From assembly GCA_041650835.1 (NCBI GenBank), contig JBAZKL010000002.1:602435-666434 (forward strand): a stretch of DNA of 64,000 bases. The letters run 5' to 3'. The DNA is from Candidatus Omnitrophota bacterium (GTDB lineage: Bacteria; Omnitrophota; Gorgyraeia; Gygaellales; Profunditerraquicolaceae). A program made the translations under genes and the position numbers. The notes beneath the pieces were generated by a model. It saw only the letters and a program-made list of their open reading frames with translations. It had not been told where the DNA came from and did not search any database. Shown in pieces: positions 4,590-61,959 of the stretch (the stretch's first letter is position 1; each line of letters begins with the position of its first letter).

Positions 4590-5686
4590 GATTCTCGAGT
4601 TTTCCCGGGTAAAATGCCGGGTGCAAGCAACAGCAATGCTGCCTGCAGGACTGCTTGCGGCTGTATCACTTTTAAGCAACGCATGGTAGAACAGGTCATC
4701 TTATTACACGGCGCGCACACTGCCTTTTGATACAGGACCACCGCCTGAGGGAAAATATTCCTGGGATCAAAACGACGCAGGCTCCCGGGGCCAAAGAGCG
4801 CCACGAGCGGAGTTTTGAGGACAGCTGCGATATGCATCGGCCCGGTATCATTGGAAATATAAAGGCTGCAGCGCGAAATAAGCGCGGCGAGCTCATTAAG
4901 ATCAAGTTTGCCCGCCAGATTCAGCACTGCCGCGCCGGGAACTCCCGCCAATTGCCGGGCGATCCCGGACTCCTGTTTCCCCCCGGTAATCACGAATTTA
5001 AACTCACCTGACTTACTGATACCGGCGATGACCCGGCAAAAGTTTTCTGCCGGCCATCTGCGTGAAAATTCCCCTCCCGGATGAATACCGATAAGGCGGT
5101 CCTCTGCGCTTATATTCGACCGTTCAAGCAAAATAGACACCGCCTGATAACTTTCTTGAGAAATGGATATATTTATATTCCGATCGGGGACAGTGGCTCC
5201 CAACGCAGAAACCATTTCAATATCATATTCCATCTCCCCCTTATCTCCCGGCCAGGATTCAGGTATTTTAACATCAAAGAACCATCCCCGCTTCTGCGTG
5301 TCTCTCCCGGCAGAAACCTTCGCGGCGACCAAGCGGAACAGGAAAAACATCTTTAACGCGCTCACCCGGCTAAGCATGGTCCTCATATTAACTGCCAGGT
5401 CATAACGCTTCTTTCTGAGGAGGAAAAACAAACGCAGCCGGTGAATCGGCCCTTTTTTATAAAAATAAAACGTATCGAAAAGAGCGCGCCCCTGCAATAA
5501 TTCAGCAGCGCGTTCGGTCGCAAGGATATCTATGCGCGCTTGAGGGAATCTGAGCTTTAAAGCCTCAAGAGCAGGAGACGATAAAAGAAGGTCGCCGATC
5601 CCCCCCAGGTTTACCACCAGGATTCTTTTTATATCAGGTAATTCCATACTCTTTTTGTAAAATGATCTTAACTGCCTGAAAAACAT
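4586..5686 (-). CDS. Glycosyltransferase family 9 (heptosyltransferase-like)
   Basis: The N-terminus RILVVNLGGIGDLLLSSPALEALK is the GT9 signature. An alternative start at M14 (5647) would reduce the overlap with the upstream gene. Confidence 0.8.
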   Translation of the reverse strand: MFFRQLRSFYKKSMELPDIKRILVVNLGGIGDLLLSSPALEALKLRFPQARIDILATERAAELLQGRALFDTFYFYKKGPIHRLRLFFLLRKKRYDLAVNMRTMLSRVSALKMFFLFRLVAAKVSAGRDTQKRGWFFDVKIPESWPGDKGEMEYDIEMVSALGATVPDRNINISISQESYQAVSILLERSNISAEDRLIGIHPGGEFSRRWPAENFCRVIAGISKSGEFKFVITGGKQESGIARQLAGVPGAAVLNLAGKLDLNELAALISRCSLYISNDTGPMHIAAVLKTPLVALFGPGSLRRFDPRNIFPQAVVLYQKAVCAPCNKMTCSTMRCLKVIQPQAVLQAALLLLAPGILPGKTRES

Positions 5687-6701
5687 CCTCTATAGAAATA
5701 GCTTTCATGCACGCGTGGCTTAAACAATCGCCTTTTGAACAAGGGCTGCACGCAAGGTCCTTGCGGATAACGGCCGCTTGCTTTCCTGCCGGAGAATAGC
5801 GCAACGGGTCAGTGGGCCCCATCAATGAAACAACCGGGGTTCCTAAGGCGCCTGCCAGGTGCATCGGCCCGGAATTATTGCATATCAAAAGTTTACACCC
5901 GGATAATACCGAAATGAGCGCTTTTATATCAGTTAAGCGCGCCTGGGCCCTGCTGTCATTGATCCCTGCGACGATATCGCTGACCAGGTCTTTTTCTCCG
6001 GGAGCTCCCAGTACAACGATCTTGAGGGAATAGGTTCCCAGCAATTTCTTCGCTAATAAAGCAAAAGAAGATTTATCCCAGCGCTGCGTTGCGTAAAATC
6101 CTCCGGGATGTATGGCGATGATATCATCTTTTGCGCCCCGGCTACCTAGGTCAAGCTTTGGGGTATCGACCGTAACCGGGATCTTTAACCCCTTTAATAA
6201 TTCAAGGTTCAGCTGGGCCATATTTTTTCCGGGGCGCCGTAGCGGGTCGGCCGTATGGGTGAAAAAGATCTCTTTAAAACCAAACCGGAAACCCGCCCGG
6301 ACAGGCGCGGCGCTTATATACGCTAAAAAGGCTGAATCGAACCGGTAATCACAATGCATATCGATCGCCAGGTCATAGCCTGCCCGCCGGATCTTTACGG
6401 CGGCAGGTATTATTTTATCATAGACTTCGATATGGTCGATACTTTTAATCAACTCCGCCAATTCTTTCAAATAGGGGCGCACGACGATACTGATCGCTGC
6501 CTGCGGCAGCGCCAGCTTAAGATTATCAATTAACGGTAACGTTAAGATCAAATCCCCCATACGGTCGATCCTGACGATCAAAATGTTCGCGAAAGAAGCG
6601 CTCGTGCGCGCGCGGGGAGGATAAACGCACTTGAGCAGAAAAATAAACGGCAATCGCAAAACAAAATACACTTCCCTGAGTATTTTCTTAAGTACCGTCA
6701 T
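5634..6701 (-). CDS. Glycosyltransferase family 9 (heptosyltransferase-like), second copy
   Basis: ILIVRIDRMGDLILTLPLIDNLK and the C-terminal GPMHLAGALGTPVVSL match GT9. Confidence 0.8.
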   Translation of the reverse strand: MTVLKKILREVYFVLRLPFIFLLKCVYPPRARTSASFANILIVRIDRMGDLILTLPLIDNLKLALPQAAISIVVRPYLKELAELIKSIDHIEVYDKIIPAAVKIRRAGYDLAIDMHCDYRFDSAFLAYISAAPVRAGFRFGFKEIFFTHTADPLRRPGKNMAQLNLELLKGLKIPVTVDTPKLDLGSRGAKDDIIAIHPGGFYATQRWDKSSFALLAKKLLGTYSLKIVVLGAPGEKDLVSDIVAGINDSRAQARLTDIKALISVLSGCKLLICNNSGPMHLAGALGTPVVSLMGPTDPLRYSPAGKQAAVIRKDLACSPCSKGDCLSHACMKAISIEDVFQAVKIILQKEYGIT

Positions 6702-8674
6702 TTTAAGGGTAACGATCCTTTCAGGCGGGGCCTGGCGTAAACCTCCAGCGAATCAAAGCATAACCGGCCTGAAATAAAAGAAAAAAAGCTGTTGATAAGG
6801 TTCAAAACATGTTCCTGCCAACGCGCGCCGTTACAATCCCCCGATACGGCAATAACCTCAAATCCCGACATTTCTAATAACGCGACGAGTGTTTCTTTCT
6901 TAAAGAAATTCAGGTGTAATTCACGGTCTAAAGGGCTGAAAAGATGCGGCTTTTTCCCCTTGACCAGCCGGTAGATACCTCGAGAAAGCCAGTTATCGAG
7001 ATTGGGAAGGGCCAGAACAAGAATCCCGTCATCCTTGAGCAGGCTGCGCAGCTTCTTGATCACCGCCACGGGGTCCCGGGTATGCTCCAACACGTGCCAA
7101 AGCGTAACCGCGTCGAACTCACTGCCCGGCGACTCATACTCGGTAATGTCCCCCCGGAACACTTCGATACCGTATTTCTCTTTGATAAAACTCACCGCGT
7201 AAGAAGAGAATTCCGTCCCAAAAACGCGCCAACCGGCATTTTGAGCAGTCTCAAGAAACAAGCCGTCACCGCAGCCGACATCTAAAAGCCTGCCCTTATG
7301 CGGCGCTGCCGCATTCAACCGCTTAAGCCGGTTGTGCCACATCTTTTGACGGCTTAGCCTTTGTTGGGTGATCCATGGTTTATAATAATCCTGCGCGTAA
7401 TTCCCTGACAAGAGATCATCGGCAGGCAAAGGCCTCACAAAAGCGAAGCGGCACCCTGAACACTGTAAAACTTTATACCCGCAGCCTGAATCTTCCTTCA
7501 CTTTAAAAGCATACCCGCCGCAGAGCTGGCAAGGAGTATCAACGACTTGCGTATTTGCGGCCTCAGCATAAACTTTTTCAATCAACTCCATATGCCGGGA
7601 AACGGTATAAAACGACTTGTACCGTTTTAACGCCTCTTGTTGCAGGCGAAGTCGCTTAAGAGGATCTTTCAATAACGCGACTAAAGCCTCAGCCAGAGCG
7701 TTCGCGCGAGCCGGTTCCACGAACACTCCTGATAAGCCATCTTCAATGATCTCAGCTAAGCCTCCCACCCGGGAAGCGACAACACAGACCCCCATTGCCA
7801 TAGATTCGATCGCCACCCGCCCAAAACCCTCGGTCAATGTCCCTTGCTCATTCTTGATCTCTACCGAAGGGACAACAGTAATATCAAACGCTGCTATCCC
7901 CGGCAATATATCGCGGCGAAAACCCGGAAATAAAAACCGGTCCTCCAGATGAAATCTCTTCACGCATTCTTGCAACTTATGAAAATACTGTCTTTTATCA
8001 GGATCGGCTTCATTCGTATCGGCGAAAATCGCGAAATAAGCGTCAGGAAATTCTTTTCGCACCATAGCCGCTGCCTCGATGAAATATTCGTAACCCTTCA
8101 CCGGATGGATCCTTCCTACCGCGCCGATGAGTAAAGCGGATTCAGGTATAGACAACTCCCTGCGCAATGCTCCACGATCTAAAGACTGGGATTCCGGGAC
8201 CTCGACCGCATTAGCGATAATGCTGAATTTAGCGATATACTTTTTCCCCTTATCCAGGTGGTCCGCCGCAGCCTCGGATACAGCGATCACCTTTCTGGCG
8301 AGTGAGACAAACAAGCGGTCCCTCCAGCTAAACGGATAGATCACGCGTAAATGGCCGATACAGGGCACACCGGCAAGACATGCGGCAACCCCGGCGCGTA
8401 TATCCAGGGAATTCACATGCACCAGGCTTATCGAATACCGCTTCATAAAGCGCGCCAGTTTCCAGATGATCGTAAAATTGGAAAAAAAAGAACCGCGCTG
8501 AAAAACAAACACCTCAACTCCCTGCCCTTTAAGCGCTTCAACCAGGGCGCCTTCTGCGTAACAAACAACATACGGCCGGAACCTCTTCTTATCGAGGCGC
8601 TTCAAGATCAACTGCAGGCTCACCTCGCCTCCGCCTATATGGGGAAATACCGAAACATATAAGATATTTTCCAT
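6698..8674 (-). CDS. Bifunctional GT4 glycosyltransferase fused to a C-terminal zinc-ribbon plus class I SAM methyltransferase
   Basis: The N-terminal half is a GT4 (EGFGRVAIESMAMGVCVVASRVGG). A CQLCGG...CSGCRF zinc ribbon follows, and then methyltransferase motif I LLDVGCGDGLF. Confidence 0.8.
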   Translation of the reverse strand: MENILYVSVFPHIGGGEVSLQLILKRLDKKRFRPYVVCYAEGALVEALKGQGVEVFVFQRGSFFSNFTIIWKLARFMKRYSISLVHVNSLDIRAGVAACLAGVPCIGHLRVIYPFSWRDRLFVSLARKVIAVSEAAADHLDKGKKYIAKFSIIANAVEVPESQSLDRGALRRELSIPESALLIGAVGRIHPVKGYEYFIEAAAMVRKEFPDAYFAIFADTNEADPDKRQYFHKLQECVKRFHLEDRFLFPGFRRDILPGIAAFDITVVPSVEIKNEQGTLTEGFGRVAIESMAMGVCVVASRVGGLAEIIEDGLSGVFVEPARANALAEALVALLKDPLKRLRLQQEALKRYKSFYTVSRHMELIEKVYAEAANTQVVDTPCQLCGGYAFKVKEDSGCGYKVLQCSGCRFAFVRPLPADDLLSGNYAQDYYKPWITQQRLSRQKMWHNRLKRLNAAAPHKGRLLDVGCGDGLFLETAQNAGWRVFGTEFSSYAVSFIKEKYGIEVFRGDITEYESPGSEFDAVTLWHVLEHTRDPVAVIKKLRSLLKDDGILVLALPNLDNWLSRGIYRLVKGKKPHLFSPLDRELHLNFFKKETLVALLEMSGFEVIAVSGDCNGARWQEHVLNLINSFFSFISGRLCFDSLEVYARPRLKGSLPLK

Positions 8675-8698
8675 CCGCTCACCTTAAATGATCATACG

Positions 8699-9382
8699 TC
8701 ATTGGGCAACTCTTAATTTTAACAGGATCCACAATGCCAGGACACCGTCTTTCCAACTTGTTTTCTTGCCGTCTTCAATAGTCCGGGGATAATACGAGAT
8801 CGGGACTTCTACTATCCTTTTACCTTGCAGCAAAAGTTTAGCGGTAACTTCCGGACAAAATTCAAAGCCCTTGCAGGAAAGCGCCAAAGATTTCAGGACT
8901 TCAGATTTAAAGGCTTTATACCCTGTCGATTCATCGGTAAGGCAGCTGCCGTATAAAAGGTTAGTCCACCAGCTTAATAACCTGCCTCCCCAGTAAAAAG
9001 CCGCGTAAGAGCGTTTATTTGTTTTTTTGAGTATCCGGGAACCATAAACCACATCTGCTTCTCCCGAAAAAAGCGGCTTCAAAAGCGCCGGATAATCCTG
9101 AGGGTCATACTCGCAATCAGCGTCCTGTATCAGAATAAACTCTCCCTTGGCGCTCTTCATGCCTCTCCTGATCGCTAATCCCTTTCCGAGATTTTTGTGC
9201 TGGTTCAGGTAAATTACCGGAAAGCCGCATACTTGGGCCTCTGAGGCGGTCAGATCAGTCGAGCCGTCATCAACGACGATCACTTCGAAATCAAAATCAA
9301 GCTTCAAAGCAAAAATATCACATAAGACCTTTCCAAGCGTATGCTCCTCATTATACGCGGGGATTATAATACTGAGCTTCAT
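8699..9382 (-). CDS. GT2 glycosyltransferase (polyprenyl-phosphate sugar transferase-like)
   Basis: MKLSIIIPAYNEE...VVDDGSTD is the GT2 signature with a DxD. Confidence 0.85.
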   Translation of the reverse strand: MKLSIIIPAYNEEHTLGKVLCDIFALKLDFDFEVIVVDDGSTDLTASEAQVCGFPVIYLNQHKNLGKGLAIRRGMKSAKGEFILIQDADCEYDPQDYPALLKPLFSGEADVVYGSRILKKTNKRSYAAFYWGGRLLSWWTNLLYGSCLTDESTGYKAFKSEVLKSLALSCKGFEFCPEVTAKLLLQGKRIVEVPISYYPRTIEDGKKTSWKDGVLALWILLKLRVAQ

Positions 9383-9842
9383 TACTCTCTCCCTTTATTT
9401 GAACTCAAAAGACACCTGCGACTATTCGAGCCGCTCATTATACCTGGCGCCCCAGAGCCCCAGTCACCAGTAACCAGTAACCAGCTACGATAACTAGTGA
9501 TTTAATATACGGTGAACGGGTCCTGTCTTGGACTATTTTCTCGCGGGGACGTTTGCCCCGCCCCGGCGTGGCGGGGCTGCACTCAGGTCGGCTGCGTCGC
9601 TCTGCCCGACTTCGTTTATCGAGGGGCATCCATGCCCGCCCCGTTAGAAACCACGTTTTCTAACGGGGCCCGCTCCTTGCCTTTATGCCCCGCTCGTAAA
9701 CAGTCCAAGCCACCCGTTCATCCGATACTCTATAACTCCCCGTCTACCATGGACCGGGGACTATGGACCATCGGCTAACTGTTTACCCCGAGCTTGTCGA
9801 GGGGTGTCTTGTGTCATGCGACCTGTTTACTCCGGACACGCT
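9383..9842. other. GC-rich, hairpin-dense structured intergenic element (copy A of a two-member family). It is a candidate ncRNA or MITE-like element.
   Basis: It contains tandem CCAGT heptads at 9449-9487, a 12-bp perfect stem at 9631-9660, a GCCCCGCC/GGCGGGGC stem, a ctaccatggaccggggactatggacc block at 9744-9772, a ccccgagcttgtcgagggg hairpin at 9786-9804 and a terminal hairpin at 9811-9839. Its GC content is far above the flanking genes. Confidence 0.5.
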
Positions 9843-12480: not shown

Positions 12481-13214
12481 ATAAGTAATTGTATCCCCCG
12501 GCCGCTTTGAGGACGGTAGATCCGGTCTATCCAATAGATAAACCACGCCAGGGAATCGATGAGTTTAGCGCATATTCTTGAAGTTATTTTCTTATCATTC
12601 ATACAAGGACTTCTTCCCATAAGATTAAAAACAGGAACAGCTTCCACGATATCAATTCCTTGCCGGCGCAAAGCTTCCCGGTACTCGGGTAATTGCCGGT
12701 AACAAACATGAGCATCGGTTATTGCTTTTTCGCCAAGCGCGTCGGTTATAAAGATCCAGGCTCCGGGACGAGCAAAGCGGCTTATATTTTCTATCGCCTT
12801 ACGGAACCCTTGCGGCTCAATGATATGGTATAAAACATCAAAGACATTGATAATATCAAACTTTTCTTCAAGGGGCGCAGTATCGCTGCCGGCATCAAAG
12901 CGGTAAAAATGCTGCGCGGGAAACAGCTTATTAAGAGAAGCAACACTCACTTCCGAAAAATCAATTCCGGTCACCTTACCTGCCTGTTTTTTAATATACT
13001 GCTTTACAAAAAAGCCGGTTCCCGCGCCGATATCCAAAACAGAGCTGCCTCTGACCTTGATCTTATGGCGCTTGAGCGCTTCTTCCAGTACGCGAACCTT
13101 TAATTTATACATAAACCGGTTATAATACCGGCTAAAACCGATGTGGCCGGAGGCCCCCAGAGAAAAATCACGCTTCAACCTCGTTTCCCAATATTCCCGC
13201 GGCTTATACGTCAT
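12465..13214 (-). CDS. Class I SAM-dependent methyltransferase
   Basis: Motif I is VLDIGAGTGFF. Confidence 0.8.
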   Translation of the reverse strand: MTYKPREYWETRLKRDFSLGASGHIGFSRYYNRFMYKLKVRVLEEALKRHKIKVRGSSVLDIGAGTGFFVKQYIKKQAGKVTGIDFSEVSVASLNKLFPAQHFYRFDAGSDTAPLEEKFDIINVFDVLYHIIEPQGFRKAIENISRFARPGAWIFITDALGEKAITDAHVCYRQLPEYREALRRQGIDIVEAVPVFNLMGRSPCMNDKKITSRICAKLIDSLAWFIYWIDRIYRPQSGRGIQLLICRKK

Positions 13215-24333: not shown

Positions 24334-26256
24334 CTACGCCTCCTTCTTTATCGTTTTATACGGCTTCGGAGGCTCTTCTTTACCGTAATAACGGTATTTA
24401 TGAGAATAATACGGATAGGTCGCGATCGCTTCAGTTTGAGGCTTGGTATGATTAAGGACAATCCCCGCGATCTTCGCCCCGACAGATTCTAACTGCCCCT
24501 TCGCCCGGATGAGCGCTTCACGGCTTGTCCTTCCGATCTCGTAAACCACGACCACGCAATCTATCTTAGGCGCCAGAAGGCTCGCGTCAGTAACGGGAAG
24601 GATCGGAGGAGAATCAAAGATGATCACTTCGAACTTCATTTTTAATTTCTCGATCACATTATTTAACTCCCTGGATTCTATCAATTCAGCAGGATTAAAG
24701 GGAAGGCGGCCGGAAGTAAGAAGCCATATATTCTCAAGCCCCGGGGTCATCCTGATCTCTTCAAAATTCATTTCCCCCATCATAAGGTCGGTAACATTCT
24801 TTAATGCCTCTTCAAGAGGAATAGTGCCGGTCAAAAGTTCATTTAAGCCGGGTTCTTTTTTAATACCGAAGGTCTTAGCGATGACCGGACGCCGCAGGTC
24901 AGCGGAAACTAAAAGCGTCTTCAGGCCGGCCTGAGCTATAACGATCGATAAATTGACCGCGATACTGCTCTTTCCTTCCCGGGGTCCGGAACTGGTGACC
25001 ATGATAGTCTTCCTGGAAGGATTAAGCTTTAAATTCGTATGGATATTACGATACGCTTCAGTTGTCGGGGATTTCGGATTATAATGCGCGAATAATCTGA
25101 TGAGCCGTTCCTGCTCTTCAGTTTTCTCAGGCGGAGAGAATTTTTCCCTAATGCGGTCAAGGATCCCGTATCCGTGATCGCTATCGTTGATCACCGAGGG
25201 AATAACTCCTAAAACCGGAAGCTTGACAACATTCTCCACGTCTTCTATGGTCCCGATCGAAGTATCCAAGGTCTCAAGCACAAAGGCCAACGCCACACCT
25301 AAGATCAATCCCATGAACGCTCCTACCACGATCCCCATCTTTTCGTTGCCGGCGACAGGGCCGGAAGGCAGAACAGCGGGATTAACGATCGAGATATCCC
25401 CCACCTTCTGCGCTTCGGTAATGCGGGCTTCCTCAAGTTTTTCCTTAAGCATAGCGTAAAGCTTTTTGTTAACATCGATCTCCCTGGTCAGGCGGGTATA
25501 TTCCAGCTCCTGCCCGGAAAAACCTTTAACCTGGGATTCCATTTGTTCGATTTGTTCACGGGCCTGCATAACACGAGGATGTTTTTCCGTATATTTTTGC
25601 AGTAGATCAGCCAGTTGAAATTCCAATTCCAGCAATTTCTGCTGCATAGGTTCGGCTAATTTAATATTCTTCACTTCATCGCCAAAAATACGCAATTTAT
25701 CTTCGGCTTGGCGCAGGCGGTCCTCTAAAGACGCCAGCTGTTCTTCAATGAACTGACGGGTATGGCGCGCCTGTTTTGCTTTATCAACCAGGTTTTCATC
25801 AATATATACCTGCGCGACATTATTAGCCAGGTCCATTGCCTCTTTGGCATTATCAGCGGTAGCGACGATACGGATCATATTGGTATTACCGACTTTTTCC
25901 GAATCGATACTTCCCTGCAAATTGCTCACGACGCTGTTAACAAGCTCCACCGGAGACTTTTCATCGATCATACCGCGCAATAACGCGACCTTCTTCATAA
26001 CCGGATACCCTTTAATGAATTTAGTCTCCGATTCCATCACATCGCCGGGATTATACATGACCATTTCGGTCAAAAGCCCGGCAATGGTCTTACGTTCTTC
26101 TATTTTAATAGTAGCGCTGGATTGATAGACAGGTTGTTTTTTAGAAAGGTAGTATATACTGCCGATAAAAACAGTAAGGAAGGTAAAAAAAATGATTAAT
26201 TTTCTTTTATGAAAAATACGGACATAATCTCTTAGATTAAGTTCATACTGCGGCAA
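24334..26256 (-). CDS. wzc: Polysaccharide co-polymerase fused to a BY tyrosine autokinase (Wzc/EpsB-like)
   Basis: The N-terminal TM region plus Wzz-like domain is followed by a C-terminal Walker A (SSGPREGKSSIAVNLS) and a Tyr-rich tail YPYYSHKYRYYG. Confidence 0.85.
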   Translation of the reverse strand: MPQYELNLRDYVRIFHKRKLIIFFTFLTVFIGSIYYLSKKQPVYQSSATIKIEERKTIAGLLTEMVMYNPGDVMESETKFIKGYPVMKKVALLRGMIDEKSPVELVNSVVSNLQGSIDSEKVGNTNMIRIVATADNAKEAMDLANNVAQVYIDENLVDKAKQARHTRQFIEEQLASLEDRLRQAEDKLRIFGDEVKNIKLAEPMQQKLLELEFQLADLLQKYTEKHPRVMQAREQIEQMESQVKGFSGQELEYTRLTREIDVNKKLYAMLKEKLEEARITEAQKVGDISIVNPAVLPSGPVAGNEKMGIVVGAFMGLILGVALAFVLETLDTSIGTIEDVENVVKLPVLGVIPSVINDSDHGYGILDRIREKFSPPEKTEEQERLIRLFAHYNPKSPTTEAYRNIHTNLKLNPSRKTIMVTSSGPREGKSSIAVNLSIVIAQAGLKTLLVSADLRRPVIAKTFGIKKEPGLNELLTGTIPLEEALKNVTDLMMGEMNFEEIRMTPGLENIWLLTSGRLPFNPAELIESRELNNVIEKLKMKFEVIIFDSPPILPVTDASLLAPKIDCVVVVYEIGRTSREALIRAKGQLESVGAKIAGIVLNHTKPQTEAIATYPYYSHKYRYYGKEEPPKPYKTIKKEA

Positions 26257-26742
26257 ATTTACCTCCTCGTCTAATGTTCTAACATATCATAGAATCAATG
26301 GGTTATCAAGTGTTTTCTGTCGTTGGATTATGCTAAGATAGGGTTAAAAACATCAGGCGCGATAACACAGGCCGCAAGTGTTCGATAGTCCACAGTCCAT
26401 GGTAGATGAGAAACTTTACGGTTATGCTGGAGCGCACATTAGAAAACTTTCGGCACAGAGTCATATGGGGAGTGCACAAGGAATTACGGCGAGTTGAAGC
26501 ACGCTCTTTACGTAAGTCTATAGCGTAAACGAGCCGTAAACCGCAGTGCACGGCGAAAGTTTTCAGTGCGCGGAAGCATGACCGTAAAGTTTGATCGTAA
26601 AAAAACAGATGACTGGAACACTGGAGACTGGAGCATCCGGAAAACAGGGAATCAGGTTGCAGGTCACCCCTTGACAAACTCGGGGTGAATGAGGCATAAG
26701 CGCGCCATAGGCATGCCTCATTCAAGCTCAAATAACATAGGA
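26257..26742. repeat. Structured intergenic element (copy B), related to 9383-9842. It has a 48-bp imperfect inverted repeat and is MITE-like or a candidate ncRNA.
   Basis: The inverted-repeat arms at 26411-26458 and 26548-26595 are about 85% identical. The element also has ACTGG (CCAGT on the minus strand) heptads at 26611-26635, a ccccttgacaaactcgggg hairpin at 26667-26685, a 12-bp stem hairpin at 26686-26724 and a ccatggac...ggactat block at 26378-26405. Confidence 0.5.
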
Positions 26743-27639
26743 TTAGAAATTCTTGATCTCCTGATTGACATACGAGCCTCGCGATAGCGGTTCAAGTATC
26801 TGGCTGAGGAAGTAATTAAGGTTGGCAATGAATTTCTTCGGGACAAAGATTATATCTTCCGACACAAGAGAAATATTCTGATGAGCATCGCCCCTGAGTA
26901 CCTTGTTGAGCGTGATACGTTTGACCTCGGGCTTTTCCAAGCCTCCGCGGATAATGACAATACTGGAGGCCACCGCGTCCTTGGTCAACCCGCCTGCTAA
27001 GGTAATAGCTTCAACGATCGTTTTAGCGCCGGTGAGAGAATAAACACCCGGCCGGTAGATCTCCCCGAGTACCAGCACTCTTTGGCCGCCGATCTTCTTG
27101 ATCGATATGGAAACCTCCGGATACTTGACAAATTCTTTTAACCGCTCGGTCAGGAGCGCGTCGAGCTCTGTAAGCGTCAACCCTTGCGCCTCTACTTCAC
27201 CGATCAAAGGGAACGAGATCATGCCGTCAGGGCGCACAACCGCTTCCTGGTCCAGGTCCTGGTTCTGCCAGACAGAAATATGCAGGACGTCGTCCTCTCC
27301 AATGGTATATTCCTGAACAGGCTTTCTTTTAACGCTTAAAACCTTAGCTTTACTCTCAGGCGCCGCCGGCGTTACTTCAGGAGCTGTTAAAGCGGAAGCG
27401 GACTGCTTTTGCTCCGGAATAACCTCACTCAAAGCTTCTTCTTTTTGGTTCAAAAGGTCCAATGCTTTCTTAAACTCACCTTGAGCTTCAGGGAACTTAT
27501 CCTGTTGATAATACAGATTACCCTTGAGATAATATTCACGCGCCTGCTCTTGAATATGCTCATCCTGCCCGTAAAGGCCAGGATGAGCCATCCCGGAAAT
27601 TAGTAGAACAAATACCGTTCTCCTGACACAATTAAACAT
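26743..27639 (-). CDS. wza: Wza-type outer-membrane polysaccharide export protein (Poly_export plus SLBB)
   Basis: YTIGEDDVLHISVWQNQDL...PDGMISFPLIGEV is the Poly_export signature, and a signal peptide is present. Confidence 0.8.
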   Translation of the reverse strand: MFNCVRRTVFVLLISGMAHPGLYGQDEHIQEQAREYYLKGNLYYQQDKFPEAQGEFKKALDLLNQKEEALSEVIPEQKQSASALTAPEVTPAAPESKAKVLSVKRKPVQEYTIGEDDVLHISVWQNQDLDQEAVVRPDGMISFPLIGEVEAQGLTLTELDALLTERLKEFVKYPEVSISIKKIGGQRVLVLGEIYRPGVYSLTGAKTIVEAITLAGGLTKDAVASSIVIIRGGLEKPEVKRITLNKVLRGDAHQNISLVSEDIIFVPKKFIANLNYFLSQILEPLSRGSYVNQEIKNF

Positions 27640-27644
27640 AGATA

Positions 27645-29612
27645 TTAGTTTTTGCCGTTTGCCGGTTCTAAGATCACTTCTATCTTTCTTTTTAAATCCT
27701 CAGCATCCTGCTTATCTTTAGAGAAAATATCCGTAGATTCACTCGCGTAAGGGCTGGAACCCAACTTATCCTGCAGAAGAGCGTTAATACGCACCGCGGA
27801 GGCAAGGTCATCAATGGTTTTTTTCTGAAGGCTCTTGGTTATCGTTAATTCTTCCTGTAATTTCTCGGAGCGCACCCGTAAACCGGCGATTTCCTGGCGG
27901 AGCGAACCAAGCTCCCGGTTTTTCTGCTTCAATTCCGATTCTTTATCATTCAAAAGCTGGTTCAATTGAGTGATTTGAGACCGCAGGCTGTTATATAACA
28001 AATTCACTTCATCCACATGCGCCTGTTGTTTGGCTAACTCTTCCTGAGTAGAAGCCTTTGATGCCTGGATCGCGGCAAGACTATTCTCCAAAGACCTTTT
28101 CTCTTCTTCTTTACGCGATATCTGCTGGCTTAAATAATCAAGATTCTTTTGCAAAGAAAGGCTTATTTCCTCTTTCTTGGAGAGCGCTAATTGGGCATCG
28201 CTTAACTGCGACTGTAACGAAATCTTCTGAGTTTCCAGGTCCCGCACTTTATCTTTATTATCCTGCGTTATTTTCAGGTTATTCTCCAATTCCGCGATCT
28301 TATTCTGCAGAGAAAGCATTTTGTCTTTTGATAAGGATAATTCGGTTTTCGCTTTGTCAAGTTCCAACTCCTTACGGACCATGATATCCGCAAGCTGCCG
28401 GGCATCTCCCGTCGATTCCTCAATTGCCGACGATAGTCCGGCATTGCCGGTTTTATTCTGCCGCAGGCGTTCCAGCGAAGAGGATAATCGTTCTTTTTCA
28501 GCGTTGAGCTTGGCGATAATGGAATCCTGGTTGCGGATCTCCTCCTGTGCCTGGCGCAAAGACTCCTCCGACACGCTCTTTACTGATTCCCAATCCCTGA
28601 CCCGCCGCACCGACTGCTTACTGCCGGTCAATTCGTCATCGACCGTCCCCAGGCGCGCCTTTAGATCCGCGACATCACTCTTCAGACGCGCGCTTTCCGC
28701 TTTTTGAGAATCTAATTCCTGCCGCTTCTTCGACAAGTCATCTGAAAGCAGGGACAACTGGCTTTTAAGGTTACGATTAGCCGCCTCCAATGAACTGATG
28801 GAATCCTGATATTGCCTCGACTGTTTTTCCTGGGTGAATTTCGCGGAATTCAACTGTGACAGCTCCGCCTGAAGAGAACTGATCTGGCTCCTCTTTTGGC
28901 TCAATTCTGAATTTAACTGGGCGATATTTTCTTCCAATGATTTGAGCGGCCCGCTCTGGCGGGAGACCGTCTGCTGAAATTCGCTGATCTTAGACTGAAG
29001 GGAAACCTTTTCAAGCCCCAGATCCTTGACCCTTTTCGAAAGCTCTTTATTGTTTGCCGCCGCCGCTTGGGTCTGGCCCCTCAGTTCTTTTAATTCAGCT
29101 TTAGCCTTGGCCAATTCCTCTTCTTTCACCTGGCTGTTGGAGGATAATTTCTCTATTTTCTCCCTTAAGGGGAGTATCTGCATCTTATCCGCGTGCAATA
29201 ACTGCCCTTTTATATTCTTAAGTTCTTCGGTCACCCGGACAAATTCCTTGGTCGTGTTCGCTAAACGATTAGCCATGCCGGAATTACTTTCCTGCAGCGT
29301 GATCCGTTCTTTGTTGACCGCGGCCAGTTCCCGGCTTAACTGGTCTATCGTGGACTGCGCGTTGGTCACTGATTTCCGGATCGCCTCCACGTGCGCGAGC
29401 TCTTTTAACGTCTTTTCTTTTTCTTCAAGGGACATTTGTAATTCCGCAGCCCTGCTCTCAACCTGCTGAGTATAACCCTGCAACTCTTCTTTTTCCTGAT
29501 AGAGTTGGGAACTTAGATCATGGGCGTTCTGCAGCTTTGTGTAAACCGCAAACGCCGCGTAACCCGCGATAACAACCGCCGTAATTATTCCGATCAAACG
29601 AATACGTTTCAT
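27645..29612 (-). CDS. Membrane-anchored long coiled-coil protein
   Basis: An N-terminal TM helix is followed by about 600 aa of heptad-rich, Q/E/L/K-rich sequence with no enzymatic motif. Confidence 0.55.
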   Translation of the reverse strand: MKRIRLIGIITAVVIAGYAAFAVYTKLQNAHDLSSQLYQEKEELQGYTQQVESRAAELQMSLEEKEKTLKELAHVEAIRKSVTNAQSTIDQLSRELAAVNKERITLQESNSGMANRLANTTKEFVRVTEELKNIKGQLLHADKMQILPLREKIEKLSSNSQVKEEELAKAKAELKELRGQTQAAAANNKELSKRVKDLGLEKVSLQSKISEFQQTVSRQSGPLKSLEENIAQLNSELSQKRSQISSLQAELSQLNSAKFTQEKQSRQYQDSISSLEAANRNLKSQLSLLSDDLSKKRQELDSQKAESARLKSDVADLKARLGTVDDELTGSKQSVRRVRDWESVKSVSEESLRQAQEEIRNQDSIIAKLNAEKERLSSSLERLRQNKTGNAGLSSAIEESTGDARQLADIMVRKELELDKAKTELSLSKDKMLSLQNKIAELENNLKITQDNKDKVRDLETQKISLQSQLSDAQLALSKKEEISLSLQKNLDYLSQQISRKEEEKRSLENSLAAIQASKASTQEELAKQQAHVDEVNLLYNSLRSQITQLNQLLNDKESELKQKNRELGSLRQEIAGLRVRSEKLQEELTITKSLQKKTIDDLASAVRINALLQDKLGSSPYASESTDIFSKDKQDAEDLKRKIEVILEPANGKN

Positions 29613-34935: not shown

Positions 34936-35163
34936 TTATATGCCTAAGAGGCGCTTACGGATCAACATAAGCGAATAGCCTTCTTTGGAAAGTGCAATGA
35001 TCTGTTTAACGCGTTTATGAGCCAGGAGGCGTTCGTAATAACGCACATTACCTTTCTTAAAGGCCAGGCTCAACAGCCCCGCATCGCAATAACGGTTTAT
35101 CGTCTGTGAAGATATACCGTATAACTGTGATAACTCTTTTACCGTGATAAATTTATCTGGCAT
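34936..35163 (-). CDS. Small MerR/excisionase-type HTH DNA-binding protein. It is a paralog of the 41632-41871 protein.
   Basis: The 75-aa protein reads ITVKELSQLYGISSQTINRYCDAGLL...KKGNVRYY...EGYSL, close to the other small HTH protein. Confidence 0.65.
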   Translation of the reverse strand: MPDKFITVKELSQLYGISSQTINRYCDAGLLSLAFKKGNVRYYERLLAHKRVKQIIALSKEGYSLMLIRKRLLGI

Positions 35164-38100
35164 TTTTTAGTTCCTGATCCGCGGTCTCCCACGTAAGCAC
35201 GAACCTTCTGACCTGTTCGGCTTCGGGGTCATTGGGCGCTAACGCTAAATATTTCCTGAAATGGACGATCGCCTTCTTACGGTCATTTAATTGCTCGCTG
35301 AAGATAACGCCTAAATTATAATGGCTCTCAGCGTCATCCGGTTTTAATTCCAAGACTTTCTGGAATTCCTTGACCGCCTTATCATATTCCTGCTTCTGGG
35401 CATACATGACCCCCAGGTTATACCGTAACACGGTATTTTCCTGAGGCAATTCAGCGTACCGGTTGGTCAGTGTCTCATGCCTGTCCTTGGCCTCTTCGGT
35501 GATCTTGAAACGCTGCGTTAACTGGTCATAATTATTTTTCAAATTCTGATAATCCTCCATTAATTCCTTATATTGCTTTTCCACCTCTTCTTTATTCTTG
35601 ACCCGCTGTTCATAATCCTGGAGCTTGCGGTTATATTCTTTTGTTTTCTCAAGTAATTCGTTTTTCGAAGCCTCCAAGTCAGCCACTTTCTTAGTCATTG
35701 CGGGAGGCGGCATTCCGCCCATCTTTTCTTTATCTTTTTCTAACCGGGTGAACTGATTTTGTAAATCATTGACCTGTTCGGAAACAGCCACGTATTGATT
35801 TTTCAAGAAAGTATTTTGCTCAAGCAGCTTCTTATTTTCATCCGTTAAAAGATTCTTTTGAGCTTCCAATTCTTTAAGCTGGGAGAGATTCTGTTTTTGC
35901 TGGTTCAAGAGAGTGCTTTTTTCCTGCACGAGCTGATAAGAGAGGTCCTGAGAACTGCGCAGATCAGACTGGACTTTATTAAGCGAATCGGTAAGTGAAC
36001 GCGTATCCGCTTCTTGGAGGGATTTATATTCCCTGAACTTGTCATTAAGCTGCGCCCACTCGCCCTCTTTATGCGCTTTCACCTGCGCGATCTCGGCATC
36101 AAGGAGCGCCCTATCCTGCTCCTTATTGGTTTTTAACTTTGTGATCTGATCAAAAAGCCCGTCCCGCCCCCGTTTAAGCTCATCACATTCCTGCCGAAGC
36201 TGGGCCTTCTCTTTTTCATTCTGGGATATTTGCGCCAGCAATTGCTCGGTCTTTTGCTGGTAACTTTGGGCTTGGGCCGCTGAACCTGTTTTGAGATTTT
36301 CCGCGTCCGCAAGCCTGACCATGGCGCGCGCTAACTGTTCGGAGATCCTGGTGCGCTCCTCAAGGATAGTCAGGTTTTTCTGCATACAATCCTGATACTG
36401 CTCTTCTAAAACCGCGTTCGCGCTCTCTAACGCTTTGGTCTTAGCGCTCAACACATTCTCCTGGCTCTGATAAACCGCTTTTTCCTGGATCAATTGCCCG
36501 GAAAGCTCCTGCGCGACCTTCAGGTCCTTTTGCAGCTTACTTATCTGTTGCGCAAAAGTATTATCGCTCTGGGCTTCAGAGAGAGAAGCTTCTTTTTCCC
36601 TGCTTTCTTTGAGCTGCGCCGATAGGACAGTAATGCTGTTTTTAAGCTCATCGGCCTGTTTCTGGGCGGTTAAACGCTCCTTTTCCAACTGTTCGGATCT
36701 ATTGCGCAGCTGCGCTAATTCCTGCGATGAAATATTTTTCTGTTTACTCGTAAGGGCTTCCTGCCGCGAGAGATTGCGCTCCGCTTCAAGATGAACCAGC
36801 TTCTGGCGTAACTGCGCGATATCCCGGTCAGACCCCAGTTGCTTCTTTAACTCCTCAGCCTGCGCCGCTATCTGGTCCCGTTCAGATTCAACCTTAGCTA
36901 ACTTTGCGCGTAACTGATCCAGATCCTTGGGCGAAGACAGCTGTTTCTTTAACGCCGCCCCTTCATCCCGCAGATGGTCGCGCTCTTCCTCCAATTTCAT
37001 CACCTTGTTACGCAACACGGAAACTTCTTTTTCCGAACCCAGCTGTTTCTTTAAAACTTCAACCTGCTTCTGTAAAACATTACGGTCTTCTTCTATTGCC
37101 GCGAATTTAGAGCGCACCCGCGCGATATCATCCTCAGAGCCTATCTGCGATCTCACCGTTTTAACTTCAGACTGCAAAGAATTACGTTCTTCTTCTAATT
37201 GAGCGAATTTCTCCCGCAATTTTTCAATTTCTTTTTGAGAGACCAGTTGTTTTTTAAGGCCTGCTGCTTCCTGCTGAAGCCGGTTACGCTCTTCCTCAAG
37301 CTTTGAGGCCTTATCACGCAGAGCGTCAAAATCACGTTTCGCGATGATCTCTTTTTTCAGGCGCGCGGCATCTTCTTTTAACGTATCGCGTTCTTCTTCG
37401 ACGAGCGACAATCTTTCGCGAAGTTCTTTTGCTTCCTGAGAAGCAACCGACAGCTCCTTAAAACGGATATCTTTTTCTTTCAAATCATCCGTCAACTGCC
37501 GGCGCTCTTCCTGGAGTTCCGATACCCGCAGGCGTATCTGGTCAATATCTTTTTGCGCGACGATCTTCCTTTTCAGCGAATTTGACTCTTCCTGCAGCTG
37601 GACGCGCTCGGTCACCGCGTCTGCCAATTTATCACGCAGCGCCTCGAGTTCTTTCTGCGGCACCTGTTTTTTCTTAAGGGCGTTTAATTTAACATTAAGC
37701 TCATTGCGCTCTAATTCGACGCCGGTGAGCTTATCGCGCAGCTGTTCAATCTCTTTCCTTAACGACTGGACCTCCCCTCCTAAGACAACCCTGACTGTTT
37801 CAAGGTCACTGAGCTGCCCGGAAACATCCTTTTGTTTACTTTGAATAAATTCTTTCTCTTGGGTCAAGCGGTTGATCAATTCCTGAAAGCTCTTAAAATC
37901 ATCCTGAAGCTTGAATATCTTCTCATTCAAAGACCTGTTTTCCTGTTCCTTCAACCCGCAGAGCTCCTTAAGCTGTAAAAGCGCCTGCTGAGAGAGCAAA
38001 AGCTCATCCTTTGCTTTTTTAAGCAAATTAATAAGCTTGTCTTTGCTCAAGGCTGAATCAACGCTATCAAGATCGGCCGTGATCGCCTTGAGATCGTCTT

Positions 38101-38230
38101 TTGCCTGTGCCCGATCAAACGGTCCAGGAAAAAACGCCATAGCTGCGGATAATAGAATACTCATGCTCAAAAGCACTCCCCGTGAACCAGGTTTTCTCTT
38201 CATAGAGTCTCCGCTTAAAATTGAAATCAC
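35153..38230 (-). CDS. Giant secreted coiled-coil protein with about ten 33-aa tandem repeats and C-terminal TPR
   Basis: The 1025-aa ORF has a signal peptide and repeats of the pattern LRxKxxxLEEERNxLxxExxxLKKQLxSxKE. The C-terminal TPR is paralogous to the 32151-33137 protein. Confidence 0.65.
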   Translation of the reverse strand: MISILSGDSMKRKPGSRGVLLSMSILLSAAMAFFPGPFDRAQAKDDLKAITADLDSVDSALSKDKLINLLKKAKDELLLSQQALLQLKELCGLKEQENRSLNEKIFKLQDDFKSFQELINRLTQEKEFIQSKQKDVSGQLSDLETVRVVLGGEVQSLRKEIEQLRDKLTGVELERNELNVKLNALKKKQVPQKELEALRDKLADAVTERVQLQEESNSLKRKIVAQKDIDQIRLRVSELQEERRQLTDDLKEKDIRFKELSVASQEAKELRERLSLVEEERDTLKEDAARLKKEIIAKRDFDALRDKASKLEEERNRLQQEAAGLKKQLVSQKEIEKLREKFAQLEEERNSLQSEVKTVRSQIGSEDDIARVRSKFAAIEEDRNVLQKQVEVLKKQLGSEKEVSVLRNKVMKLEEERDHLRDEGAALKKQLSSPKDLDQLRAKLAKVESERDQIAAQAEELKKQLGSDRDIAQLRQKLVHLEAERNLSRQEALTSKQKNISSQELAQLRNRSEQLEKERLTAQKQADELKNSITVLSAQLKESREKEASLSEAQSDNTFAQQISKLQKDLKVAQELSGQLIQEKAVYQSQENVLSAKTKALESANAVLEEQYQDCMQKNLTILEERTRISEQLARAMVRLADAENLKTGSAAQAQSYQQKTEQLLAQISQNEKEKAQLRQECDELKRGRDGLFDQITKLKTNKEQDRALLDAEIAQVKAHKEGEWAQLNDKFREYKSLQEADTRSLTDSLNKVQSDLRSSQDLSYQLVQEKSTLLNQQKQNLSQLKELEAQKNLLTDENKKLLEQNTFLKNQYVAVSEQVNDLQNQFTRLEKDKEKMGGMPPPAMTKKVADLEASKNELLEKTKEYNRKLQDYEQRVKNKEEVEKQYKELMEDYQNLKNNYDQLTQRFKITEEAKDRHETLTNRYAELPQENTVLRYNLGVMYAQKQEYDKAVKEFQKVLELKPDDAESHYNLGVIFSEQLNDRKKAIVHFRKYLALAPNDPEAEQVRRFVLTWETADQELKNAR
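36730..37740 (-). repeat. Intragenic tandem repeat with a period of about 99 bp (about 10 diverged units) that encodes the 33-aa coiled-coil repeats
   Basis: The unit recurs about every 99-102 bp, with the cagctgtttctttaa/ccagttgttttttaa motif at about 36838, 36941, 37040, 37242 and 37343. Confidence 0.6.
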
Positions 38231-41623: not shown

Positions 41624-41631
41624 AAAACCTT

Positions 41632-41871
41632 TTAAACTCCTATTAGCCTTTTTTTGATCAGGCGCAGCGAATAACCTTCACGCGACAGCCGGGTGATCAA
41701 AGCAATGCGCTGCTTCACCAACTTAGAATCATAAAAGCGTATATTCCCCTTTTTAAAAGCAAGCGGCAGCAAGCCAAAATCGGTATAATGATTTACCGTC
41801 TGGTAAGTCAAATGATACCTGTTCATGATCTCTTTCGCCGAAACTAATGTATTTTCGTCTGCCATACTCAC
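41632..41871 (-). CDS. Small MerR/excisionase-type HTH DNA-binding protein
   Basis: The 79-aa protein reads SAKEIMNRYHLTYQTVNHYTDFGLLPLAFKKGNIRFY...EGYSLRLIKKRLIGV. Confidence 0.65.
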   Translation of the reverse strand: MSMADENTLVSAKEIMNRYHLTYQTVNHYTDFGLLPLAFKKGNIRFYDSKLVKQRIALITRLSREGYSLRLIKKRLIGV

Positions 41872-41905
41872 CTATTCACGCGCATTTCACTTGTGATAAC
41901 CTTTG

Positions 41906-41949
41906 TATATATAAGACTTATTGTACCTACCATAAGTCTTATATATACT
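41906..41949. promoter_or_regulatory. 16-bp perfect inverted-repeat candidate operator
   Basis: The two arms, gtatatataagactta and taagtcttatatatac, are separated by a 12-nt spacer and overlap the predicted -10 element. Confidence 0.6.
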
Positions 41950-41970
41950 ACAGATTCCGGGCTTGTCAAT
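41940..41970 (-). promoter_or_regulatory. Sigma70-like promoter for the HTH-secretin operon
   Basis: On the minus strand the -35 is TTGACA (41964-41969), the spacer is 16-17 nt, and the -10 is TATATA/TATAAT-like (about 41942-41947). It lies about 70 nt upstream of the ATG. Confidence 0.55.
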
Positions 41971-42111
41971 AGTTTTTTTAATATTTTTTAGGGAGGCAGA
42001 TGTGAGCGGCTGCGGCACGCCATTGCCGGTCACCCATGACCGCAGCCCGGGTTTAAACCCGGGCTACGTGACATAAACGAGCATCATTGCAAAACGATCT
42101 TTTTAACAAGC

Positions 42112-42143
42112 AAAAAACCGGGCTTATACGCAATAAGGCCCGG
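42112..42143 (-). terminator. Rho-independent terminator after the response-regulator gene
   Basis: On the minus strand the stem CCGGGCCUUAU/AUAAGCCCGG is followed by UUUUUU. Confidence 0.5.
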
Positions 42144-42261
42144 CCTTAAGCTGTGACCTTTTAAGTTACAGATAAGTCCGGGCCTTGAATATCCTGCCCG
42201 TCTTTCCAGTCCGCGCAAAGCAGACGGCAAAGAACCTTGCTTTAGGCGCCGATAACTGAGA

Positions 42262-42651
42262 TCACTTCTTCAGCTTCTTATGCGTGCGTAAAGCAGCCTC
42301 AAGAAGGGATAGCCCCTCCTGAAAATCAGTACCCTTGTAAAACACGCCTGAAACACCGTAACCCATTGCTTCATTGACGCGCTTATCATCGACAAAAGCG
42401 CTGATAAAGATCACCGGCACATTCGCGTTGAATTTTCTGATCCTTTTTAACGATTCTACGCCGTCCATAACCGGCATATTCAGGTCCAGGAAAATAATAT
42501 CGGGTGACTGTTCCTTCACCATGACCAAAGCGTTCTCCCCGTTAGAAGCAGAAATAACGCTATAGCCTTTTGATTGCAGCCAAAACGTCATCACCTGGCG
42601 GAAATCAGATTCATCATCAACCACTAAAACTTTAATATCATTATTTTCCAT
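42262..42651 (-). CDS. Stand-alone response-regulator receiver domain protein (CheY-like)
   Basis: KVLVVDDESDFRQ...DIIFLDLNMPVMDG carries the phospho-acceptor Asp. Confidence 0.85.
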   Translation of the reverse strand: MENNDIKVLVVDDESDFRQVMTFWLQSKGYSVISASNGENALVMVKEQSPDIIFLDLNMPVMDGVESLKRIRKFNANVPVIFISAFVDDKRVNEAMGYGVSGVFYKGTDFQEGLSLLEAALRTHKKLKK

Positions 42652-44787: not shown

Positions 44788-44930
44788 CAAGTCTAAAGTT
44801 TAAAGTCTAAATATCCAAGGAAGGTTCAAGACTAAAGGCTAAATTTTAAAATTACCTGCCGGCCGGCAGGCAGGAACCTTTAACCTTCAAACTTCCTTTG
44901 TTATTTATACTTTGGCCTTTAAAATTAAAA
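44788..44930. repeat. AT-rich palindromic intergenic repeat of about 140 bp, family copy 1
   Basis: The arms are built from taaag/ctttaa words with aaggaagg and cttccttt cores, around a GC palindromic centre cctgccggccggcagg. The other three copies are at 54235, 57385 and 61960. Confidence 0.65.
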
Positions 44931-54234: not shown

Positions 54235-54376
54235 AAATTTTAAAGTTTAAAGGTTAAATAACAAAGGAAGTCTCAAGTTTAAAGGATAAATTTTAAAATT
54301 TCGTACCTGCCGGTAAGCAGGAACCTTTGGACTTTGAACTTCCTTTATTCTTTGGATTTTAACCTTTGATCTTTAC
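54235..54376. repeat. AT-rich palindromic intergenic repeat, family copy 2
   Basis: It has the same arm words as copy 1 and the centre cctgccggtaagcagg. Confidence 0.65.
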
Positions 54377-57239: not shown

Positions 57240-57263
57240 GATCGTTAATGTCGTTATTTTCGT

Positions 57264-57330
57264 TACTATCGTTTAGTTCGTTAAACGAAACTAATGATGT
57301 TACCGAAAACAACGAACTAAACGATAGTAA
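57264..57330. promoter_or_regulatory. 20-bp perfect inverted repeat immediately upstream of the mfd start
   Basis: The arms ttactatcgtttagttcgtt and aacgaactaaacgatagtaa are separated by a 27-nt spacer. Confidence 0.4.
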
Positions 57331-57364
57331 AAAGGACGCGAGGGAAATCCCTTGCGTCCTTTTA
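57331..57364 (-). terminator. Rho-independent terminator downstream of secDF
   Basis: The stem aaaggacgcgaggg/cccttgcgtccttt is followed on the minus strand by UUUUUAC. Confidence 0.55.
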
Positions 57365-61957: not shown

Positions 61958-61959
61958 AG

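Follow-up and report, generated by a model that had tools for sequence, protein, structure and literature searches.

Introduction

What is the long, structured stretch of DNA that separates the polysaccharide genes wza and wzc in a genome of Candidatus Omnitrophota, a little-studied phylum with almost no genetics? This spacer (26257–26742) lies inside a long polysaccharide gene cluster in the window analysed here, a stretch of 64,000 nucleotides of contig JBAZKL010000002.1 whose large open reading frames (ORFs) are all carried by the minus strand. The initial annotation, made from the letters alone, had taken the spacer for 'copy B' of one structured element, with modules circularly permuted relative to 'copy A', a 460-nt spacer (9383–9842) flanked by PMT_2-type and family-2 glycosyltransferase genes; the two are called spacers B and A below. 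Our analysis leads to a different answer. The wza–wzc spacer is very probably a mosaic in which short interspersed repeats, non-coding and hairpin-forming, are clustered, resembling bacterial interspersed mosaic elements (BIMEs), ERIC-like and MITE-like sequences (MITEs are miniature transposable elements with inverted repeats) and short tandemly repeated repetitive (STRR) sequences, and not one element. It is thus an ordinary kind of bacterial intergenic repeat clutter, and its families are also found elsewhere in this Omnitrophota lineage.

Results

Composition of the wza–wzc spacer

Along the direction of transcription the spacer consists of a hairpin, P; a decayed copy of a second hairpin, H; heptad arrays; a palindromic element of about 185 nt, termed B-type; a heptad block; and about 125 nt of wzc leader. 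Every module recurs at other loci, the order of the modules varies freely from locus to locus, and copies stand in both orientations beside unrelated genes. The stems of the B-type element, of P and of a further element in spacer A (A-type) have been kept through compensatory changes, and those of H covary. The genome itself was sampled over 82.5 kb (the 64-kb window and 18.5 kb of flanking DNA). Its spacer is contained in a metagenome contig of 354 kb (ENA ERZ27247363), with a partial second assembly from Logan (SRR8542065). For comparison we used a relative with a 98% identical Wza (L064); the wza–wzc locus (L055; Wza 86%) and a different locus (L021) of a sister metagenome-assembled genome (MAG), GCA_964588175.1, which is filed as a 'Planctomycetales' MAG; a more distant relative (L056); and seven JGI contigs retrieved in a metagenome scan for the 3' arm of the B-type element.

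P (26686–26724, minus strand) begins 19 nt past the wza stop and has a perfect 12-bp stem (26686–26697/26713–26724), 100% complementary in the repeat search, and a 15-nt loop; as no T-run follows, it was not scored as an intrinsic terminator. P and the adjacent H form a repeated unit, which is found again in L021 (~2790–2735), its stem there altered at two points that are both fully compensated (GAGGCAT/ATGCCTC to GAACCAT/ATGGTTC). The H copy (26665–26686, minus strand), the 'CCCC hairpin' of the initial annotation, reads ACCCC-GAGTTTGTCAA-GGGGTG, differs from the consensus loop GAGCTTGTCGA at two positions and appears decayed. It is followed by a degenerate heptad array (26611–26664, minus strand) that starts with CCTGCAA CCTGATT CCCTGTT TTCCGGA, continues into CCAGTCT CCAGTGT(T) CCAGTC, and matches L055 (5586–5631) at about 80%. 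Beyond the B-type element (26408–26595, minus strand) comes the heptad-array start that we call block 1 (26382–26406, minus strand; CCATGGA CTGTGGA CTATCGA). Block 1 follows A-type or B-type elements in most copies, with alike right flanks in L059, L057, L060 and L055, and in L058 and L063 H takes its place.

The initial annotation had described 48-nt inverted arms enclosing about 90 nt that folds further. A long, imperfect inverted repeat is indeed present, but the arms given in that description extend some 6 nt too deep towards the centre and are shifted in register by 3 nt. The repeat search returned 26411–26437/26566–26592 (27 nt, 85%) and 26442–26452/26554–26564 (11 nt, 100%), and gapped alignment, which pairs 35 of 42 positions and includes an indel of 3 nt, gave the true arms as 26411–26452 and 26554–26592. 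Between them lie 101 nt that do fold further, and the element has a conserved core. Compared with shuffles the spacer is unusually stable on both strands (z = -5.2 for the minus and -4.8 for the plus strand), none of 100 shuffles being equally stable.

Two candidate readings of the same DNA were rejected. The sole ORF across the B-type element, of 132 aa (26333–26731), has no Pfam match, coincides with no gene call in the source record and would be broken by frame-shifting indels within the family. For the P loop and the mutated loop of H (TTGACA), sigma-54 and antisense sigma-70 promoters were considered by inspection, but the spacing is wrong and a promoter scan of the plus strand was empty.

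The same site in related genomes

The 264-nt spacer of L064 holds no P, H, CCAGT heptads, B-type element or block 1, and its similarity to the window restarts only at 26380–26257 (88% identity over 124 nt). L055 has a spacer of 968 nt, in which B-like (5971–6149) and A-like sequences (5602–5682 and 6158–6247), heptads and a degenerate H are interleaved, and of which the final 64 nt are 91% identical to the window; the spacer of a third relative (P0002 contig) is about 320 nt long. All three keep the wza–wzc synteny. The first ~85 nt past the wza stop are common to L064 and L055, whereas the window diverges right after the stop. From this comparison we conclude that the first ~361 nt of the window spacer replaced ancestral DNA and that only its last 64–125 nt are orthologous.

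The wzc leader (26257–26381, minus strand) is accordingly the sole ancestral part of the spacer. It carries a predicted promoter-like site (TTGATA-17-TATGTT with a TG extension, 26309–26281) and a ribosome-binding site, GAGGAGG (26268–26262), ahead of the wzc TTG start at 26256, and all three are conserved in L064 and L055. The promoter scan gave this one match, which is not enriched over shuffles and whose hexamers are kept in both relatives.

The B-type element as a dispersed family

Copies 85–95% identical to the B-type element, with different flanks, were found in L059, L057/L045, L058, L055, L063, L061 and L060, amounting to at least six distinct loci beyond the window among the JGI contigs and the sister MAG; several stand at contig ends. 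Both orientations are represented, and the neighbouring ORFs, which are unrelated, may be on either side, so that copies are found upstream as well as downstream of them. The copy in the wza–wzc spacer of the sister MAG retains an 88%-identical hairpin core, and another contig of that MAG begins inside a further copy.

Two subfamilies can be told apart. Their two arms have changed in concert (GGTCATGCT/AGCATAACC versus GGTTTTTGCT/AGCAAAAACC), and further in an A-U pair is swapped for G-C. They also differ by indels of 1–2 nt, which are incompatible with coding. It is palindromic nearly throughout and not just at its ends, and no target-site duplication of 2 nt or more was found on both sides of the four complete copies (window, L059, L057 and L058).

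As a separate observation, the 5' arm of the L055 copy is interrupted by an insertion of about 50 nt (5915–5965) that can itself form a hairpin (caccctgcgc...gcgcaggtgtg; ctgcagaaagcag-like), which suggests nested insertion of still smaller repeats.

A-type and C-type elements and heptad arrays

The core of spacer A is occupied by the A-type element (9500–9730, plus strand), a GC-rich multi-hairpin domain with closing arms at ~9510–9548/9679–9722 and a fold z-score of -5.0. A copy at a different locus in L056 (20659–20820; 75% identity over 204 nt) has lost two hairpins through a deletion of 41 nt, and one of its stems has changed in a compensatory manner (GCCCCGCC/GGCGGGGC to GCCACGCC/GGCGTGGC). 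Pieces of the A-type element are also present in L055 and L063.

C-type elements make up a third family, AT-rich palindromes of about 140 nt whose arms are TAAAGNN/NNCTTTA heptad arrays around a GC-rich centre (ACCTGCC..GGCAGG). The window contains copies at 44794–44929, 54240–54375, 57401–57543 and 61958–62098; others lie in the flanking 18.5 kb (L088 ~12507–12579 and L090 ~8640–8763) and in the sister MAG (L021 2790–2917).

All eight period-7 arrays reported by Tandem Repeats Finder in the window are intergenic, where intergenic DNA is 11% of the window. Their units are diverse (CCAGTNN, TAAAGNN and CTTGTGN). The CCAGTNN array of spacer A (9457–9484, plus strand; 94% matches) belongs to a stretch, 9443–9523, that matches the wza–wzc spacer of the sister species (L055 5602–5682) at 88%.

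Comparison of spacers A and B

The blocks that the initial annotation had seen in both spacers are real. Positions 9743–9764 correspond to 26406–26385 and 9785–9806 to 26686–26665, each with 20 of 22 identities and in reverse orientation, CCAGTCACCAGT corresponding to CCAGTCTCCAGT; among 300 dinucleotide shuffles of spacer A not one gave even a single 20/22 match (best 19). CCAGT heptads are likewise common to both, with period-7 repeats at 9460–9484 (3.6 copies) and 26611–26633 (3.1 copies), and the order of the modules differs between the spacers as had been noted. The inference drawn from this order did not hold. The central domains (9500–9730 and 26408–26595) have no similarity beyond 9-mers and each belongs to a repeat family of its own, so the spacers are not two copies of one element, and the modules stand in still other orders in L055, L058, L063 and L021, with no sign of a circular intermediate: the B-type element is followed by a reversed H in L058 and L063, and in L055 the arms of the A-type element are split around H and the B-type element, with block 1 interleaved. 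The apparent circular permutation therefore arises from two different cores flanked by the same small modules. Independent assortment of the modules explains all of the orders seen, which a circular intermediate does not. What does survive, in general terms, is the view of the spacer as non-autonomous repeated DNA, since its first ~361 nt are non-ancestral, repeated, non-coding and structured and their pieces recur elsewhere.

H, a hairpin with a constant loop and variable stems

The consensus copy of H in the window lies in spacer A (9785–9806, plus strand; ACCCCGAGCTTGTCGAGGGGTG), embedded in heptads and oriented opposite to the operon; with its flanks it belongs to a 48-nt exact match to L045 and L057. 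The consensus, GTCA-NNNN-GAGCTTGTCGA-NNNN-TGAC, describes a hairpin of 22–27 nt that is extragenic in the window; the GTCA...TGAC base is present often, though not in every copy.

A scan of 185,579 GTDB species genomes with ACCCCGAGNTTGTCNAGGGGTG returned 52 loci against about one expected by chance. They belong to candidate phyla radiation lineages (e.g. Patescibacteria), Spirochaetales (10 contigs of one MAG), Chloroflexi, Actinomycetota, Gemmatimonadota, Acidobacteria, Proteobacteria and the 'Planctomycetales' MAG. When the fetched loci were searched with the loop only, 81 hairpins were found against 1.6 expected. Among matches that had not been chosen by their stem, 20 of 32 have four Watson–Crick closing pairs, built from at least five stem sequences. 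The 61 unseeded hairpins show 80.9% pairing and a covariation of 0.695, compared with 0.237 in shuffles (0 of 500 as high) and at most 0.21 in slid registers. By these covariation results H is a family whose stem varies and whose 11-nt loop, GAGCTTGTCGA, is invariant.

H is also present in viral contigs. Two stem variants were found on 11 and 12 IMG/VR viral contigs, and 230 kb of IMG/VR sequence held 104 loop matches against 0.9 expected; the patterns for the B-type and A-type elements gave 0 matches in the same database. In an 11-kb stretch of one viral contig (L085), H hairpins, of which there are about 24, stand singly or in head-to-head doublets (GTCA-NNNT-loop-ANNN-TGAC) and fill almost all gaps between the co-directional ORFs. 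H occurs alone, without the other modules, in dozens of phyla.

Comparisons with existing collections gave little. H has no match in Rfam, and searches of the searchable full-text literature with the hairpin as DNA, RNA or translated sequence returned primers only, or nothing. PLSDB plasmids gave partial matches at chance level only, and the H-rich viral contig has no match among INPHARED phages. The H doublet hit one freshwater 'Bacteriophage sp.' contig, which carries bacterial genes and is uninformative. Pfam analysis of 143 ORFs near H at the 52 loci revealed no enriched family, and no transposase stands among the top families.

It is conceivable, although we hold the idea only tentatively and think it more probably wrong, that H represents an undescribed, cross-phylum and virus-borne superfamily akin to repetitive extragenic palindromic (REP) sequences, in which a conserved trans-acting factor, for instance a RAYT-like HUH enzyme or an RNA-binding or RNA-processing protein, reads the loop, and that the Omnitrophota mosaics, this spacer included, accumulate H together with lineage-specific palindromes and heptads. 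Should a common factor indeed read the loop, H would be one of the rare repeat families that are shared across the bacterial domain. We regard H as the most interesting by-product of this analysis and the part worth following up.

Discussion

How the modules may spread and act

The distribution described above suggests that the modules are non-autonomous repeats which, as DNA able to form hairpins, spread and turn over rapidly. They may be mobilised as single-stranded hairpins by an HUH/Y1 enzyme of the RAYT type acting in trans, with recombination between modules in addition; the lack of target-site duplications and the hairpin-defined ends make such an enzyme a likelier agent than DDE cut-and-paste transposition. 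The initial annotation had remarked that no transposase is nearby, and indeed none is encoded within 10 kb; about 44 kb away on the same contig, however, is a RAYT-like Y1 transposase gene (L088:19504–20697), which lies about 7.6 kb beyond the window start. Its 397-aa product matches Y1_Tnp (45.6 bits) and NF047646 (71.6 bits, the cutoff being 80), has the HUH and tyrosine motifs ('NHLHLLV' and 'AYIHLNP'), and continues from this N-terminal Y1/HUH domain into a helix predicted to lie in the membrane and then an additional domain at the C terminus. Just upstream of the gene is a direct repeat of 27 nt (CGAAAGTGCCAGGCACAAGC...). As a candidate mobiliser this gene is only a lead.

BIMEs are themselves mosaic clusters, and MITEs and REPs are often co-transcribed at the 3' ends of genes, where they affect mRNA stability (PMC3184786, PMC3733652, PMC2817692). 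Judged by their position, the modules of spacer B are probably included in the wza mRNA as its 3' tail. By analogy with REP and ERIC sequences (PMC3184786), their stable hairpins could there obstruct 3' exonucleases, provide sites for processing, or make transcription pause or partly stop, while wzc would be expressed at least partly from its own predicted promoter.

Several observations weigh against the interpretation of the spacer as a repeat mosaic, or against parts of it. The window and L064 do not form a clean filled/empty pair with exact ends, as ~361 nt stand in place of ~139 nt. The comparison with relatives that the initial annotation had proposed thus did yield a close relative without the modules, but not the ends of an empty site, and mobility is for this reason read from the distribution of the repeats and not demonstrated. 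Within the 82.5 kb of this genome there are one B-type element, one A-type element and two H hairpins (the additional 18.5 kb contained no further A, B or H copies), most copies coming from related contigs. The RAYT-like protein falls under the NCBIfam cutoff and has an unusual membrane-anchored C-terminal region, and the flanks of its gene, which is followed by the next gene after 2 nt, contain no H, A-type or B-type sequence. H carries no GTAG/CGTC tag of the kind found in classified REPs, and its loop is much longer than theirs. One short-read assembly alone spans the full spacer, so the internal order rests on one contig. Finally, no canonical terminator was found: 26150–26850 contained 0 terminator-like sites (GC hairpin followed by a T-run) on either strand, and any role of the modules at the RNA level is conjecture.

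Alternative explanations

The view that spacers A and B are copies of one modular non-autonomous element, with an order set by a circular intermediate or a separable terminator hairpin, has in its favour that the shared blocks are real and significant and that the order is formally a cyclic shift when these two spacers alone are compared. We nevertheless give it almost no credence, given that the central domains are unrelated and of different families, that non-cyclic orders are seen elsewhere (the reversed H after the B-type element in L058 and L063, and the interleaved arrangement in L055), and that H is found alone in dozens of phyla. An artefact of assembly, in which repeats caused a chimeric or collapsed join and the order of the modules has no biological meaning, is equally hard to credit. 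The Logan contigs do break inside the A-type (9539) and B-type (26512) elements, which indicates that these repeats fragment short-read assemblies of the lineage, and the spacer is spanned by the ENA contig alone; yet an independent Logan contig agrees exactly with the spacer over its first 231 nt, L055, L064 and the P0002 contig maintain the synteny of wza and wzc, complete B-type elements are covered together with their two flanks by independent JGI contigs, and the k-mer size of the contig (141) can resolve copies that are 85–95% identical.

More might be said for reading the ~185-nt hairpin as a classical MITE, that is, a deletion derivative of an insertion sequence (IS) moved by a DDE transposase through its terminal inverted repeats, because long terminal inverted arms, multiple copies, the lack of an ORF, a length of 150–200 bp and a long hairpin are hallmarks of such elements (PMC3184786). 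This remains unlikely. None of the four complete copies has a target-site duplication, the palindrome runs nearly throughout instead of being terminal alone, about 150 kb of related DNA contains no parent IS with AACTTTACGGT... ends, and the flanks are other repeats and not unique target DNA. A dedicated cis-regulatory RNA or small RNA (sRNA) of the exopolysaccharide (EPS) operon, for instance one that sets the Wza:Wzc ratio through attenuation or processing and is under selection for doing so, would suit a position between polysaccharide genes whose stoichiometry matters, a very stable sense-strand fold (z = -5.2) and stems that are kept by compensatory changes. It is very unlikely all the same: the element is absent from the same site in the 98% relative, copies stand upstream or downstream of unrelated genes and in both orientations, the antisense strand folds equally well, and wzc is preceded by a promoter-like site and a ribosome-binding site of its own, both of them conserved. 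There is no terminator and no Rfam match either (none in the window at gathering thresholds, and only chance-level hits, all with E > 1, in permissive scans of both spacers), and a tRNA/tmRNA scan found none. The sRNA that the initial annotation had considered likely is therefore not borne out, and a repeat mosaic remains our preferred reading of the spacer.

Genomic setting and other features of the window

Upstream of the spacer, wza (26743–27639, minus strand) encodes an outer-membrane polysaccharide export protein (Pfam Poly_export, 1.7e-24, and SLBB) whose closest homologues are, by name, polysaccharide export proteins of Candidatus Omnitrophota; downstream, wzc (24334–26256, minus strand) encodes a chain-length determinant/tyrosine autokinase (Pfam Wzz, GNVR and AAA_31). 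The EPS/secretin cluster also encodes two long coiled-coil proteins (35153–38230, 1025 aa with C-terminal TPR; 27645–29612, 655 aa) and an HD-domain protein, and the coiled-coil and HD genes keep their order in L055 and L056. Elsewhere in the window, an Mfd-like ORF (55332–57239, 635 aa) aligns to model positions 294–822 of 907 alone and overlaps the next ORF (54410–55411), called SurA-like in the source record; Mfd thus seems short at both ends. Further near-perfect palindromes were seen at 41905–41948 (44 nt, 91%) and 42041–42068 (28 nt, 93%), in a 1-kb gap (41624–42640), and the gap upstream of secDF holds an exact inverted pair of 20 nt (57263–57363).

Meaning for Omnitrophota genomes

Identifying the spacer as a repeat mosaic removes a tempting wrong reading, that of a circular mobile element or an EPS-specific RNA. 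The large 'structured' spacers of this Omnitrophota genome are repeat mosaics, which bears on annotation, on assembly, where they cause contig breaks, and on the interpretation of operons. The three palindromic repeat families and the heptad arrays described here form a first catalogue for the phylum.

Relation to known repeat systems

The STRR sequences of filamentous cyanobacteria are tandem 7-bp repeats that are confined to intergenic DNA, can form hairpins and have no known function (PMC2670836). The heptad arrays of the window share their intergenic location, and spacer A reads CCCCAGT CACCAGT AACCAGT. The first of these units, CCCCAGT, is reportedly that of STRR1 (Mazel et al. 1990). The host here is not a cyanobacterium, however, and the arrays are short (3–9 units) and degenerate, several of them serving as the arms of palindromic elements such as the C-type; they therefore do not belong to the STRR1–3 families of heterocystous cyanobacteria.

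Hairpin repeats of the REPIN/RAYT type are often paired head to head, and a Y1/HUH transposase present once in the genome is presumed to mobilise them (PMC3116915, PMC2817692). Head-to-head doublets of H are likewise seen in several genomes and in viral contigs, and a RAYT-like gene is present on the contig. The differences are that this gene scores below the cutoff and is not flanked by repeats, that the window contains no doublets, and that H crosses phyla whereas REPINs are species-specific. Classified REPs moreover have loops of 2–5 nt (PMC3733652), compared with the invariant 11-nt loop of H, which lacks the unpaired GTAG/CGTC tag.

ERIC/IRU, Correia, RUP and RPE sequences are multicopy, intergenic, co-transcribed imperfect palindromes of 100–200 bp that form one long hairpin (PMC3184786). 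The B-type (~185 nt) and A-type (~220 nt) elements fit this description, and the B-type element shares with MITEs its inverted arms (35/42) around a short core without a transposase gene. Neither is similar in sequence to ERIC/IRU, Correia, RUP or RPE, target-site duplications (TA or other) were not seen, and the A-type element is multi-branched and GC-rich rather than a simple hairpin.

In arrangement the spacers resemble the BIMEs of Enterobacteria and Pseudomonas, intergenic clusters in which palindromes (REP/PU hairpins) and short motifs are combined in variable order and alternating orientation (PMC3184786, PMC2817692). The present clusters differ in their low density (two H hairpins in 64 kb), in also holding palindromes of 140–230 nt and heptad arrays, and in belonging to an Omnitrophota lineage. 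As with BIMEs, which often follow genes inside operons, are co-transcribed with them and have an effect on mRNA stability, P, H, heptads and palindromes are combined here in many orders, and the variable orders of spacers A and B, L055, L058, L063 and L021 are those of a REP/BIME-type mosaic.

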